DNA of 64,000 nucleotides from Leucoraja erinacea (lineage: Eukaryota), in NCBI RefSeq assembly GCF_028641065.1, contig NC_073383.1, positions 21,762,001 to 21,826,000 of the forward strand, given 5' to 3'. The translations under genes and the position numbers were made by a program. The notes under the pieces are model-generated. The model saw only the letters and a list, made by a program, of their open reading frames with translations, made no database searches and was not told the origin of the DNA. Below, piece after piece: positions 36,640-63,425 of this stretch; positions within the stretch are counted from its first letter, which is position 1, and the number at the start of each line of letters is the position of its first letter.

Positions 36640-36740
36640 AAAGATGAGCCCCGTCCCGAAACCTCAGATATCCATGTTCTCCAGGGATGCTGCCTAACCT
36701 GTGCAGTTCTTTCTGTTCCAAGTAGAATTCCACCATCTGC
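36640..36740 (+). mobile_element. Degenerate copy of the hammerhead-core short repeat
   Basis: cccgaaac...atccatgttctccagggatgctgcct...catctgc resembles the younger copies. Confidence 0.45.
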
Positions 36741-37596
36741 CCTTCCTTGTATCTTCATTTCCGGACTATAATGATCTTGGATAATCTGCTCTGAGCAAAA
36801 AGTTGACACAAAATAAAATGTGTTTTGTGATTTGATTTGTTAAGAGAAACTGGGTGCTTTATGTACCTTTTAATCAAATTGCATTTTAGATCTTTAATCC
36901 TCTGTAATGCATTTGAAATGGATTTCACCTGACAAGCATTGATTCAAGTTAATCTAAATGTAATTAGCTAATGAGGAGTGCGTTTCTCTTTGATTATTGT
37001 AAAGTTTTATTTATCTGTAAAACGGCCCTCTGCTTAAGCACAGCAAATATTGAGATGTGGTGTTTTAAATTAAGTCCAACTTTCTGTAATTTTGCGCATT
37101 GCAGTTAAGACATCTCGAATTGCGCACAGTCGCAGAATATCGATTCCTACAACTTCCTTATACTTGAGCACAACATTTTAGTTTAATATTCCAGTACCGT
37201 GTCGACGACGTGCTATATTTTCAGAAGTAGCGTCTTTCAAATGATATGTTGAACTGGAATCCCATCAGCTCACTCTGGCAGCTGCACAAGATACAATGGC
37301 ATGAATTCGAAGTTACGTTATAACCAAATTCCCGACGGGTATTTTGAATGTCATGAAAGGACGAAAAAGGAGGTGTCGTGTTTATTTTTCGTCAGTAAGG
37401 AAGCTCTTCGTCGACAAATTATACAATAATGGCTTTGTTCTTCTGGACGTCTGCTGGCCATGACCTTTTTGGCCATTTGTACCTTTTGCAGTTGGTATTA
37501 AACGTCGAACCAAAGACAGAACAAAGTCAAAACTATCGGACATAAGCAAAATAGGTGTGCGGAAAGACTTCAAGTACAAATATGAACGGATAATTA

Positions 37597-37912
37597 CATA
37601 GAAACATAGAAATAGGTGCAGCAGTAGGCCATTCGGCCCTTCGAATCTGCACCGCCATTCAATATGATCATGGCTGATCATCCAACTCAGTATCCTGTAC
37701 CTGCCTTCTCTCCATACCCCCTGATACCTTTAGCCACAAGGGCCACATCCAACTCCCTCTTAAATATAGCTAATGAACTGGCCTCAACTACCTTCTGTGG
37801 CAGAGAATTCCAGAGATTCACCACTCTCTGCGTGAAAAATGTTTTTCTCATCTCGGTCCTAAAAGATTTCCCCCTTATCCTTAAACTGTGACTTTTTGTT
37901 CTGGACTTCCCC
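37597..37912 (-). mobile_element. CR1-clade LINE 3' end (HER1-like)
   Basis: Minus strand encodes RTKSHSLRIRGKSFRTEMRKTFFTQRVVNLWNSLPQKVVEA, followed by the typical gaatggcctactgctgcacctatttctatg tail. Confidence 0.85.
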
Positions 37913-37999
37913 AGGTGCCAGCGTCCTTTATTCAGGTGCCAACATCCGTTATCGTTAAAAAAAATGATTTTGACACGTGCATGAAATTAAATAACACGT

Positions 38000-38153
38000 A
38001 GAATATAAAACAGTACAGCCCAGGAACCGGCCTTTCGGCCCATAATGTCCTCGCAAATAATGATGGTAAATTAAACCCATATCCTCCGCCTGCACATGAT
38101 CCACACCCTTCCATTCCCTGCACATCGTGTTCCCATCTAAAAGTCCCTCAATG
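38000..38153 (-). mobile_element. CR1-type LINE 3' tail fragment abutting a gap
   Basis: Reverse complement contains gggccgaaaggccggttcctgggctgtactgttttatattct. Confidence 0.6.
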
Positions 38154-38605
38154 NNNNNNNNNNNNNNNNNNNNNNNNNNNNNNNNNNNNNNNNNNNNNNN
38201 NNNNNNNNNNNNNNNNNNNNNNNNNNNNNNNNNNNNNNNNNNNNNNNNNNNNNNNNNNNNNNNNNNNNNNNNNNNNNNNNNNNNNNNNNNNNNNNNNNNN
38301 NNNNNNNNNNNNNNNNNNNNNNNNNNNNNNNNNNNNNNNNNNNNNNNNNNNNNNNNNNNNNNNNNNNNGTAACATTTCAGAGAATAATCAGAAAATAAAT
38401 CCGCAGGTATTACTGAAATAATTTGATTGCACTTGGAGGATTGGGCTGATCTTTCACCTTTGTTATAGAATAAAGATCGATATCCATTCTAATCGAATAT
38501 AATGTGAAACATTCAGCCGTATATTCTATGAACTGAAGTCCCACTGAAACACAAATTGAAAGTATACTTTCGCTTCGGAAATCAGGGAGCGAATGAACAT
38601 AAAGC

Positions 38606-38770
38606 AAAGGTAGACATAAAATGCTGGAGTAACTCAGTGGGACAGGCTGCATCCCTGGAGGGAAAAATGGGTGACGTTTCGGGTCGAGACCCTTCTTCCT
38701 GAAGTAACTCAGCGGGACAGGCAGCATCTCTGGAGAGAAGGAATGGGTGACGTATCGGGTTGAGACCCTT
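38606..38770 (-). mobile_element. Hammerhead-core short retroelement, tandem dimer with TSD
   Basis: Two tandem gtaactcag...ggtgacgt..cgggt.gagaccctt units flanked by AACATAAAGC (38596-38605 and 38771-38780). Confidence 0.8.
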
Positions 38771-38904
38771 AACATAAAGCTGAAAATATGTAAAGAATAC
38801 CAAATGTTCAAGGCGGAATTCAACATGAAGCAAACTTGGAAATTGAATAGATTGACACGATGATAGCTTGGTAAACAGGCAGAAAGGCAGAGGCATATAT
38901 GCAT

Positions 38905-39006
38905 CAGTGTGAAGAAGGGTCTCGACCCGAAACGTCACCTATCCCTTTTCTCCGGAGATGCTGCCTGTCCCGCTGTGTTACTCCAGCATTTTGTGTCTAC
39001 CTTCGA
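38905..39006 (+). mobile_element. Hammerhead-core short retroelement (core C3 mutated to G)
   Basis: cagtgtgaagaagggtctcgacccgaaacgtcacctatcc...ttactccagcattttgtgtctaccttcga. Confidence 0.8.
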
Positions 39007-39497
39007 CGCATACATACGTATATGCTCACATAAATACATGCAAACAAACGCGCATCCATAGTTAAAGACAATCGGAAAGTTACCCAAGCAGAACCGTATC
39101 CAATCCTTGTCCTCCAGTAATGCTACCTGACCTACTAAGTTCTTCCAGAACTTTGTGTTTTGCTCAAGATTCTAGCATTTGCATTGTGTCTTCATTCATT
39201 CGACAATACTGTTCAACGGTAGGCCAACAGTGTTTACAAATTATCTGCTCCACATAAAAGATGACCCGGTATGGCATTGTTCATGAAGTGTTTGTTGGAA
39301 GTGATAATATGCTTTATAAATGCAAAGTTTTAATCAAATATTATATTGGCTAGACAGTCATACATTTGAAAACGGTGCCGCATGACAAGTGATTCTGGTT
39401 TAATTGGCGAATAACGATCTGTGTTCTCTCTGATTAATGCGAAGATTACTATCTCTCTAAGTTTTTATTTGAGTATACGTAACAGGTATCTGAATAT

Positions 39498-39637
39498 GAG
39501 ATATATTCTGAAGAATATATTCTGAAGAAGGACCGGAATATTCTGAAGAAGGGTCTCGACCCGAAACGTCACCCATTCCTTCTCTTCAGAGATGCTGCCT
39601 GACCCGCTGAATTACTCCAGCATTTTGTGTCTACCTT
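39498..39637 (+). mobile_element. Hammerhead-core short retroelement with intact core and 14-bp TSD
   Basis: CTGAAGAAGGGTCTCGACCCGAAACGTC at 39543-39570, flanked by AGGTATCTGAATAT (39484-39497) and AGGTATCGGAATAT (39638-39651). Confidence 0.85.
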
Positions 39638-61920: not shown

Positions 61921-62292
61921 TGTGTTGGGAGGAACTGAAGATGCTGGTTTAAACTGATGATAGACATACAAAGCTGGAGTAACTCAGCGGGTCAGACAGC
62001 ATCTCCGGAGAAAAGGAATAGATGACGTTTCGGGCGAGATCCTTTTTCAAACTGAAAGTCGGGAGAGAGAAACGAGAGATATAGACGATGATCTCTTGTT
62101 TCCCTTTCTCCTGACTCTCAGTCTGAAGAAGGGTCTCGAAACGTAACTTATTCCTTTTCTGGTTTAAACAACAGGCACAAAAAGCTGGAGTAACTCAGCG
62201 GGCCAGGCAGCATCTCTGGAGAAAAGGTATAGGTGATGGTTCGGGTCGAGAAGAAGGGTCTCGAACCGAAACATCACCTATTTCTTTTCTCT
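61921..62292. mobile_element. Two fold-back hammerhead-core elements nested in a CR1
   Basis: Left arm, self-complementary spacer (gaaagtcgggagagagaaacgagagat...atctcttgtttccctttctcctgactctc), right arm agtctgaagaagggtctcgaaacgtaac; then a second inverted pair at 62160-62290. Confidence 0.75.
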
Positions 62293-62779
62293 GGGGACTG
62301 GGATTGAGCAGGAAACATAAATAGAGTAGACTCAATGAGCTGAATGGCCTAATTCTGCTCCAATGTTTCATGGAAACCTGTCTGATATGCCGAGTACCTT
62401 TCGAGTCTGGTGAGGTATCACCAAATCAGGCATCAACAGGGCTCGAAATTAGCGGTTGCCCGGTTGCCAATGGCAACCTACAGTCCAGTCAGGCAACCTA
62501 AAAGCCAGGCCACCTTACACATGCACACAGCCGCAACCTGCACATCCTCTCCCTCCACATGCGCACAACCACGCCAGCACATCATCTGCCGCCCTGTACA
62601 TGCGCACTGCCACGGCAACTGGTCGGCGTCGGCCACTTTCTCCTTCCCTTTGCATTGTGGGAGATCTGGCCGCCATTGCTGTCTGGTTGCCGCCTAACGG
62701 CGACCGTTGAAAACCAACGCAGAATCACTAGCTTCTGGGACACATGATAATAAAACTCTCTTGATTCTTGACTTGGACT

Positions 62780-62900
62780 TAAGCAAAAAAGGGTTCTTGG
62801 GGGGGGGAAAAATAACTACCTTAAATTTAATTACGTCTGGTTGGGTACCAATAGTAGGGTGAAGACTATTCCATGCTTTAATTGTGCGGGGGAACTCCAT
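62780..62900 (-). mobile_element. LINE RT C-terminal fragment
   Basis: FPRTIKAWNSLHP resembles the FFPRTxxxWNxLP terminal motif of CR1/L2-group LINEs. Confidence 0.55.
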
Positions 62901-62979
62901 GGAACAGCCAGCAACTCTGGATAGAAGAAATTGGGTGACGTTTCGGGTAGAGACCCTTCCTTAGATTTCCTCTGGTTTT

Positions 62980-63087
62980 AGTGTTTTAGTTTAATTTAAA
63001 GATACAGAGTGGAAACAGGCCCTTCGGCCCACCGAGTCCACGCTGACCACCGATCACCCGTACACTAGTTCTATCCCACACATTAGC
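62980..63087 (-). mobile_element. HE1-like SINE 3' portion
   Basis: gatacagagtggaaacaggcccttcggcccaccgagtccacgctgaccaccgatcacccgtacactagtt is the reverse of the tail at 43700-43800. Confidence 0.75.
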
Positions 63088-63244
63088 GACGCAAGTCAAG
63101 AGTCAAGAGTGTTTTCTTCTCTCACGTCCCGATTAGAACAATGACATTCTTGCAGCAGTACAACGGAATATGTAAACATAGTACTCTGTAAACAATGTTA
63201 TAACGAGAAAACAAAAAAGTTTACATTTATATATGAATGTATAA

Positions 63245-63246
<2 letters not shown>

Positions 63247-63288
<42 letters not shown>
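63247..63288. repeat. (CA)n microsatellite
   Basis: Directly visible. Confidence 0.97.
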
Positions 63289-63290
<2 letters not shown>

Positions 63291-63327
63291 TTTCCTCCTG
63301 GGATTAATAAAGTTCTATCGTATAGTA

Positions 63328-63425
63328 TTGTGTGTTAGGAACTGCAGATGCTGGTTTAAACTGAAGATAGACACAAAAAGCTGGAGTAACTCAACAGGTC
63401 AGACAGAATCTCTGGAAAAAAGGGA
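63328..63425 (-). mobile_element. Hammerhead-family short repeat, 3' fragment
   Basis: ggaactgcagatgctggtttaaactgaagatagacacaaaaagctggagtaactca. Confidence 0.75.

Follow-up and report, generated by a model that had tools for sequence, protein, structure and literature searches.

What kind of mobile element left the short, hammerhead-bearing repeats that lie beside the posterior Hox cluster of the skate Leucoraja erinacea? The stretch analyzed here, called the window below, comprises 64,000 nucleotides (nt) of contig NC_073383.1 (positions 21,762,001 to 21,826,000, forward strand), and a reading of its sequence alone, the sequence-only reading, had taken the repeats for non-autonomous, fold-back retroelements of a retrozyme or Penelope family. 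We read them, with a probability of roughly 0.85, as the 3' terminal pieces of an endonuclease-bearing (EN+), probably Neptune-type Penelope-like element (PLE): a pseudo long terminal repeat (pLTR) with a minimal hammerhead and an optional tail, in which nearly all cores are broken. The Penelope connection of the earlier reading is thereby upheld, through the match to the consensus of PLE hammerheads, a tail at one end only, inverted copies and partial tandems, target-site duplications (TSDs) of variable length, and an indirect link to a likely GIY-YIG coding end.

BLAST searches with five window copies as queries returned 19 repeat pieces that form 13 insertion units, all within 36641-63437, in agreement with the more than ten copies noticed before. 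No unit lies in the first 36.6 kb of the window (P = 1.3e-5 under uniform placement), and none of the 13 lies inside the Hox cluster. Copies are typically about 60-135 bp long here and diverge from the column majority by 5-25% per piece, with the two oldest pieces at 36-39%. The 28-nt core pattern has five matches at up to three mismatches in the window against none in 100 shuffles, and a minimal-hammerhead descriptor finds two places (39543 and 58572) against a mean of 0.01 over 100 shuffles; exact-pattern scans of viral contigs, metagenome contigs, and prokaryote genomes returned no match. Four of 24 listed sequencing runs were aligned to 59500-62600, a stretch that holds further repeats too: 71,630 of 12.9 million bulk RNA reads (oligo-dT library) and 66,488 of 17.6 million single-cell reads were mapped, as were 274,818 and 226,164 contigs from two DNA-type runs. 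It should be noted that the figures below come from the rows listed, 24 out of 4192 for loose ends and 15 out of 3251 for joints, and that the placement of reads between copies J and K biases these counts. The repeat is very abundant: in run X1 its summed contig depth exceeds the unique depth by a factor of about 3.7 x 10^5, a ratio that is not a copy number. A contig from another species, 95.7% identical over 59834-61785, starts within the tail of unit J, which therefore looks older than that species split; no orthologous site lacking the insertion was seen.

The minimal hammerhead reading is supported by the consensus of metazoan PLE hammerheads, made up of a U-rich flank, CUGANGAH, a stem II closed by a G-C pair, GAAA, a palindrome, and NUH (Cervera and De la Pena 2014, PMC4209133; this and the papers cited below are drawn on in part). 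At 39543-39570 on the plus strand the CUGANGA box, the extra base, the G-C-closed stem II, GAAA, the palindromic pair, and NUH are all present, as CUGAAGA, an extra A, a 4-bp stem II with a CUCG loop, GAAA, CG, and UC, with the predicted cut after 39570. This is the only intact core among 20 aligned pieces, and the cores at 38909, 58572, 59733, and 62123 are mutated, just as had been read from the letters. The 5-bp stem II of that reading must be shortened: there are four pairs around the 4-nt CUCG loop, because a fifth would leave a 2-nt loop, which cannot form. Helix I has 0-3 contiguous pairs in ten copies; two pairs form with the family's TCAGT flank and one pair in the intact copy. The loose-end majorities of the family at large keep the boxes, the second box and GUC behind 62139 (2532 X22 reads) and, in 662 X13 contigs behind 62251, the first box. 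Loop II and downstream letters are altered in a second subfamily (1273 X13 contigs), which keeps the visible stem II letters and GAAACGTC; it varies the loop, not the stem. The fold-back character attributed to the element survives only for three units with an adjoining inverted copy: single copies fold no better than shuffles (z-scores of -0.95 to +0.99 in five sense-strand copies), so "fold-back" describes three compound insertions and not the element itself.

The insertion ends were surveyed in 14 units, with unit boundaries set by hand. All six TSDs claimed earlier (14, 14, 14, 10, 10, and 7 bp) were recovered and a seventh of 8 bp was added; the remaining 7 of the 14 units had none. Among 1500 random pairs, exact matches of at least 10 bp never occurred, matches of at least 8 bp occurred 8 times, and matches of at least 7 bp made up 2.4%, so that the 7-bp duplication is marginal on its own. 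The exact 14-bp duplications, 44134/44317 and 44381/44541, enclose two head-to-head fold-backs: unit E (44134-44330, plus), with the tail on its right arm only, and unit F (44381-44554, minus), which starts at about +40, has no core, and carries the tail on its left arm only. A third of 14 bp, with one mismatch (39484-39497/39638-39651), flanks unit D (39484-39651, plus), composed of a stuttered 5' junction (39498-39542) and the tailless copy 39543-39637. The 10-bp duplications belong to unit B (38596-38780, minus; 38596/38771), a head-to-tail partial tandem of the pieces 38770-38699 and 38698-38607, neither of which has an intact first box, and to unit G (56921-57034, minus; 56921/57025), a tailless copy with a decayed core. 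Unit J (59725-59870, plus; 7 bp, 59725/59864) runs from core to tail at 59733-59863, the tailless end falling at 59827 and the tail at 59828-59863. Unit K (61910-62297) is a double fold-back of four pieces (minus, plus, minus, plus; 61918-62289) inside the one 8-bp duplication (61910/62290), with the full tail on the leftmost piece only. Instead of the fixed length of a DNA transposon, the duplications thus vary from 7 to 14 bp. At the 3' side, 13 of the 19 pieces stop near one of two points, seven with the full tail and six about 36 nt earlier, and both ends recur family-wide as loose ends at 59827 (1520 X22 reads) and 59863 (2090 X24 reads), at a low agreement of 0.35-0.38. The full tail is confined to one arm in units E, F, and K; inverted copies and partial tandems are found in units B, E, F, and K, and such joints occur in contigs as well. 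The published signature of PLEs comprises 5' truncation, partial tandems, an adjacent inverted copy, and a one-ended tail of 30-40 bp, with variable TSDs of 8-10 bp (PMC8557442, PMC3846280).

Upstream of the core, the family extends through 62088-62122 and beyond: loose ends before 62091 occur in 3650 reads (agreement 0.69) and in 912 and 862 contigs, at agreements of 0.54-0.69, and two unit K pieces extend upstream too. The extension at 62088-62122 (plus, mirrored at 62050-62090 on the minus strand) is pyrimidine-rich, ends in TCAGT, and is likely the 3' untranslated region of the PLE. With the frame through copy J as query, phmmer returned eight hits, six of them spurious open reading frames (ORFs) across the repeat. 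P0007, which was found via the repeat, has the repeat and then a non-repeat segment of 54 amino acids; a search with the region of this segment alone returned P0007 and P0012 among three candidates, P0012 being 74% identical. In P0012, which lies on another contig, the segment comes first and is separated from the repeat by about 215 nt, among them the upstream extension known from the window; since P0012 was found without the repeat, the argument that links repeat and segment does not run in a circle. Read in a shifted frame, the codons of the segment are compatible with the C-terminal half of the PLE GIY-YIG domain (a first motif agrees at 12 of 12 and 11 of 12 positions, a score reached in 0 and 4 of 3000 shuffles), and a motif taken from four Neptune rows (Craig 2021, Fig. 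S2), tested with the spacing E-x3-I-x2-L-x4-P-x-G-L-N, matches at 9 of 10 positions at the same aligned place in both. Poseidon spacing scores at chance level. Both the order in P0012 and the shifted-frame match point indirectly to a GIY-YIG coding end upstream of the terminal repeat, and with this link the copies are best read as pseudo-LTR ends of a PLE and not as retrozymes.

Some candidates were set aside, among them P0003 and P0006 as low-complexity matches of no relation to the repeat. P0001, the open frame of 44 amino acids that runs through copy J, was considered as a PLE N-terminus and rejected as a conserved ORF: it has no longer relatives, no Atlas hit, and no Pfam match, and five window copies have a stop in it. 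None of the 12 repeat-related or intergenic frames sent to Pfam was matched there; P0012 has no match in Pfam or PDB, and the P0007 segment has no longer relatives and no Atlas hit at 0.9 or above.

Several results weigh against a PLE with a hammerhead of this kind. On the coding side, neither a reverse transcriptase nor a full-length element was seen, and searches for longer proteins found none. The 12-position motif was picked after the profile had been seen and with background knowledge of the domain, and the Neptune motif is reached by chance in 63 and 80 of 3000 shuffles (p of about 0.02-0.03 each); P0007 and P0012 are homologous, so they do not give independent support. The putative endonuclease is read from codon compatibility, and the last catalytic Asn appears as Asp in P0007 and P0012 alike; since a codon for Asn would create a stop in the called frame, these ORFs could presumably not show it. 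On the RNA side, stem II is not predicted and has no compensatory change among 12 window copies, and a search for conserved structure across the body found only a 4-bp hairpin without covariation. The comparison with Rfam hammerhead models proposed by the sequence-only reading matched no hammerhead family; the 14 matches at E up to 1 are all to microRNA models, with scores below the gathering thresholds. Stem II has a pair probability of about 0.02 in the monomer, and in dimers the hammerhead fold reaches -6.5 and -0.1 kcal/mol where alternative folds reach -28.9 and -32.8, a gap of 22-33 kcal/mol calculated with no tertiary terms. Modeled in this way, thermodynamics disfavor the active hammerhead fold. 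No sharp RNA start or end was found at GUC or TCAGT in two RNA runs, and plain random truncation does not predict the clustered 5' starts considered below. Dimer cleavage of hammerheads was reportedly described by Lünse et al. in 2017. Single minimal hammerheads of PLEs showed no activity and dimers low activity (PMC4209133), and the hammerhead of PAc, a Poseidon element of Anolis, cut only with its protein, with no reads ending at the cleavage site in the parts of the report used here (Frangieh 2024, PMC11167929). By analogy with this anole element, hammerhead activity in the skate family, if real, probably needs help.

Taking the copies as PLE termini, we can outline how they may have arisen. 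The RT-GIY-YIG protein would nick the DNA and start reverse transcription at one of two internal sites on the RNA, as in the model of Frangieh (2024); the basis for two sites is the distance of 36 nt between the two 3' ends. A second nick at varying positions would yield the 7-14 bp duplications, and snap-back or template switching would make the head-to-head and tandem pieces of units B, E, F, and K. The hammerhead of the parent element would cut after GUC only as a dimer or together with the element's protein, and the relics in the window would be passively transcribed and not work as ribozymes. The depth in run X24, about 10,000 over the repeat against about 30 on the neighboring exon, agrees with passive transcription of a great number of copies. 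At copy J the depth of stranded reads is 9021 antisense against 1685 sense; in run X22, reads over 59708-59811 and 61892-61995 are about 4-5 times more often antisense than sense to the hammerhead strand, and a neighboring LINE-like (long interspersed nuclear element) relic is likewise strand-biased, at about 6:1. The antisense excess could come from internal oligo-dT priming or from selection against sense copies in genes.

The 5' ends call for an explanation of their own. In eleven of the 19 pieces the first letter falls between -5 and +7 relative to the core, a span of 13 nt about TCAGT (starts read from alignments; scan P of 0.0001 to 0.004 under two uniform ranges). Contig joints lead into the repeat precisely at 62118-62120 (TCA in TCAGT), though the reference continues upstream (32/13/15 and 16/13/10 contigs), and loose ends before 59733, with AT-rich flanks of low agreement, are found in 2461 X1 contigs against 912 before 62091. 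We take TCAGT to resemble an initiator; with the pyrimidine tract it resembles a splice acceptor, and judged by its letters the upstream extension reads as initiator-like or splice-acceptor-like. In the Penelope of Drosophila virilis an intron ends at helix I (PMC4209133). A shared spliced 5' exon is not supported as the cause of the clustering, no common upstream sequence being found in window copies or RNA loose ends (agreement 0.39-0.51). Our preferred inference is run-off, in which 5'-proximal priming yields a copy limited to the first 95-131 nt of PLE RNA. The copies beginning at TCAGT would then result from synthesis that began at the 5'-proximal initiation site and ran off the 5' end of the RNA, and those with the upstream extension would be ordinary 5' truncations; we put these two steps jointly at about even odds. 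More tentatively, and rather less likely than not, the solo copies with a TCAGT start and two fixed 3' ends may be the in vivo footprint of internal initiation of reverse transcription on the 5' end of PLE RNA. If so, a PLE sheds hammerhead-bearing mini-copies of about 100-135 bp as a by-product, possibly a self-sustaining "PLE-SINE"; the footprint would explain the thousands of single minimal hammerheads in genomes, and the transcription start of a PLE could be mapped from DNA alone.

A separate, short non-autonomous RNA predicts the same clustered starts as run-off does. Here the short copies would be a distinct family, whose RNA of about 100-135 nt starts at TCAGT in solo pLTRs and is mobilized by a PLE in trans; it could coexist with the PLE termini described above. 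The 5' clustering, the joints at 62118-62120, and the excess of loose ends before 59733 all agree with it, as do published PLEs, whose pLTRs can act in trans and in rotifers contain the initiator-like TCACT (Arkhipova et al. 2013, PMC3846280) and among which non-autonomous forms have been described (PMC8557442). Run-off from the 5' end of a full PLE RNA, however, yields the same copies without a separate family, no start at TCAGT was seen in either RNA run, and the joint and loose-end counts carry the limits of the listing and of J/K read placement noted above. We consider such a family rather unlikely. Of the earlier claim that the repeats are non-autonomous and mobilized in trans, the part concerning the family as a whole is not needed, because its longer members run back into a likely endonuclease gene; the claim may apply only to the short TCAGT-start copies.

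Far less probable is a non-LTR retrozyme, in which tandem units would self-cleave twice, circularize, and spread via circular RNA. One chondrichthyan genome does contain PLE-derived non-LTR retrozymes (Li et al. 2026, bioRxiv 10.64898/2026.07.22.740005), and tail-to-core joints occur here in DNA (36 and 31 contigs) and in 3 + 1 RNA reads; these joints do not show circles, because they stand in DNA. No unit in the window has two complete cores, with 1 of 20 pieces intact and none in the tandem unit B, and the insertions end before the core and at the tail, not at GUC, except in the fold-back E. The motif is also minimal, a type set apart from retrozymes by Cervera (2020, PMC7229834). The retrozyme label of the sequence-only reading is therefore dropped, as the window has no complete tandem pair and the motif is not the canonical one.

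The antisense strand invites a different reading, that of a short interspersed nuclear element (SINE) transcribed by RNA polymerase III, in which the hairpin would be a B-box-like arm and the likeness to a hammerhead incidental. Four units (44291, 44418, 61945, and 63352) have an A-box-like match on the antisense strand of the tail, antisense stem II, as read from the sequence, is one letter from a B box, and the reads at copy J are mostly antisense. Yet no canonical B box stands in register in the 13 units, the A-like box is absent from tailless copies, the LINE-like relic shares the strand bias, and the likely endonuclease end is found upstream of the repeat on the strand of the hammerhead. 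A tRNA search found none, and in the sense of the element, too, the 13 units have no canonical B box, in line with the claim that polymerase III boxes are lacking; with neither box nor tRNA the tRNA-derived reading fails, and we regard a SINE as very improbable. Scarcely credible at all is a non-autonomous DNA transposon (miniature inverted-repeat transposable element), a reading that fails although three units resemble long inverted repeats, for the TSD varies in length, no terminal inverted repeat is present in six single copies (2-6 of 15 letters), and the inverted arms differ in start and end from unit to unit.

The other units have no convincing TSD. Unit A (36641-36714, plus) is an old truncated copy, 69% identical to copy J, with a broken core and no TSD. 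Unit C (38904-39006, plus) is a young tailless copy that starts at TCAGT, has the first C of the core changed to G, and shows no convincing TSD; an older distant relative, about 64% identical to the majority and outside the 13 units, lies at 39085-39160 (plus). Two tailed copies of the second subfamily, both without TSD, are unit H (58105-58219, minus), with an internal deletion, and unit I (58572-58700, plus), with stem II and palindrome mutated. Unit L (62901-62964, minus) is 3'-truncated, with a mutated first box, and unit M (63331-63437, minus) is tailed, with a decayed core; neither has a TSD. Two junctions deserve a separate mention. Within the TSD of unit D, the first letters of the element occur twice more, as short stretches (39498-39542) ahead of the intact copy, a pattern that looks like repeated priming attempts at the 5' junction. 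The fold-back of unit E is centered on the palindrome beside the cleavage triplet (about 44208-44211), and this center (44204-44216) is the palindrome that serves as hammerhead helix III; this single case is compatible with snap-back priming at the palindrome.

The window carries homeobox genes on both strands, five on the minus (4.9-42.7 kb) and one on the plus (47-50 kb), with Pfam matches to Homeodomain, DUF3528, and HoxA13_N; we take them to be HoxD10-D14 and Evx2, with lunapark presumably starting near 59-60 kb. All 13 units lie outside the HoxD10-D13 core and surround the genes read as HoxD14 (41.0-42.7 kb) and Evx2, which suggests that the gene read as HoxD14 sits beyond the repeat-excluding part of the cluster. 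That gene (41017-42701, minus) has a split homeodomain (Pfam 1-46 in one exon) and appears intact; from its signature residues we assume it to be Hox14. The homeodomain exon of the gene read as HoxD13 (29874-30200, minus) shifts frame after a lysine-rich run near 30030, either an assembly indel or a real frameshift. The final intron of the presumed Evx2 gene holds three 49-bp tandem copies (49085-49231). Other repeats include a very abundant one at 60020-60155, of high depth in all four runs and unrelated to the hammerhead family; what we presume to be 3' ends of CR1/L2-type LINEs at 37600-37915, 56690-56860, and 61700-61890 (a LINE-like frame at 37687-37986, minus, has no Pfam match); and a further SINE-like family in both orientations at 43530-43815, 62977-63065, 63460-63600, and 63770-63990 (inverted pairs I10 and I13).

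The kind of element is already known: minimal hammerheads have been described in PLE termini since 2014, and thousands of single motifs were attributed to truncated PLEs (PMC4209133). No cartilaginous fish appears in the examined part of that alignment or in a term search of supplement file 2, and no description of this repeat family in sharks, skates, or Chondrichthyes was found in the literature; Repbase and Dfam, which lay outside the search, may catalogue it. A whale shark preprint, as far as consulted, reports a Penelope expansion, and a term search of two skate genome papers did not find the word Penelope. The value of the analysis lies in annotating a very abundant repeat of a cartilaginous fish, not found described, as the likely terminus of a Neptune-type PLE, and in offering a large natural set of insertion ends for an in vivo test of the internal, two-site priming model, the one such model from in vitro work; the clustered 5' ends are the one lead worth following.

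Compared with the minimal hammerheads of PLEs, the skate family has the same core letters, the extra base before stem II, the G-C closing pair, the CG palindrome, and the U-rich flank, as well as the same mass occurrence as single motifs; it differs in that the family majority has a short stem II of 4 bp and a helix I of just 2 bp, although a 2-bp helix I is also known from Culex, D. virilis, and Oikopleura (PMC4209133). With animal non-LTR retrozymes it shares a type I hammerhead, the absence of an ORF, and PLE ancestry, whereas retrozymes have consecutive tandems of complete ribozymes and circular RNAs and the window copies are dispersed, mostly single, minimal, and broken (PMC7229834; bioRxiv 10.64898/2026.07.22.740005); the retrozyme families of Li et al. 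(2026), who sampled one chondrichthyan, average 363 bp. Neptune EN+ PLEs would correspond in the spacing of the putative endonuclease C-terminus and in the untranslated region and pLTR that would follow it here, and they do correspond in 5' truncation, inverted copies, a one-ended tail of 30-40 bp, and variable TSDs (PMC8557442, PMC3846280), the differences being that most copies here measure about 60-135 bp and that the reverse transcriptase, linker zinc finger, and N-terminal half of the endonuclease are unseen. A mechanistic parallel is PAc, whose ORF begins at stem II and whose reverse transcription starts 111-118 nt into that ORF, at two neighboring internal sites by which the authors explain the tail (PMC11167929). 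Judged by endonuclease spacing, PAc appears to belong to another clade than the skate family, in which the core lacks a start codon and the single long open frame is interrupted by a stop in five window copies; both have a hammerhead followed about 95-130 nt on by two element ends, and in neither, within the parts of that report used here, were reads seen to end at the cleavage site.

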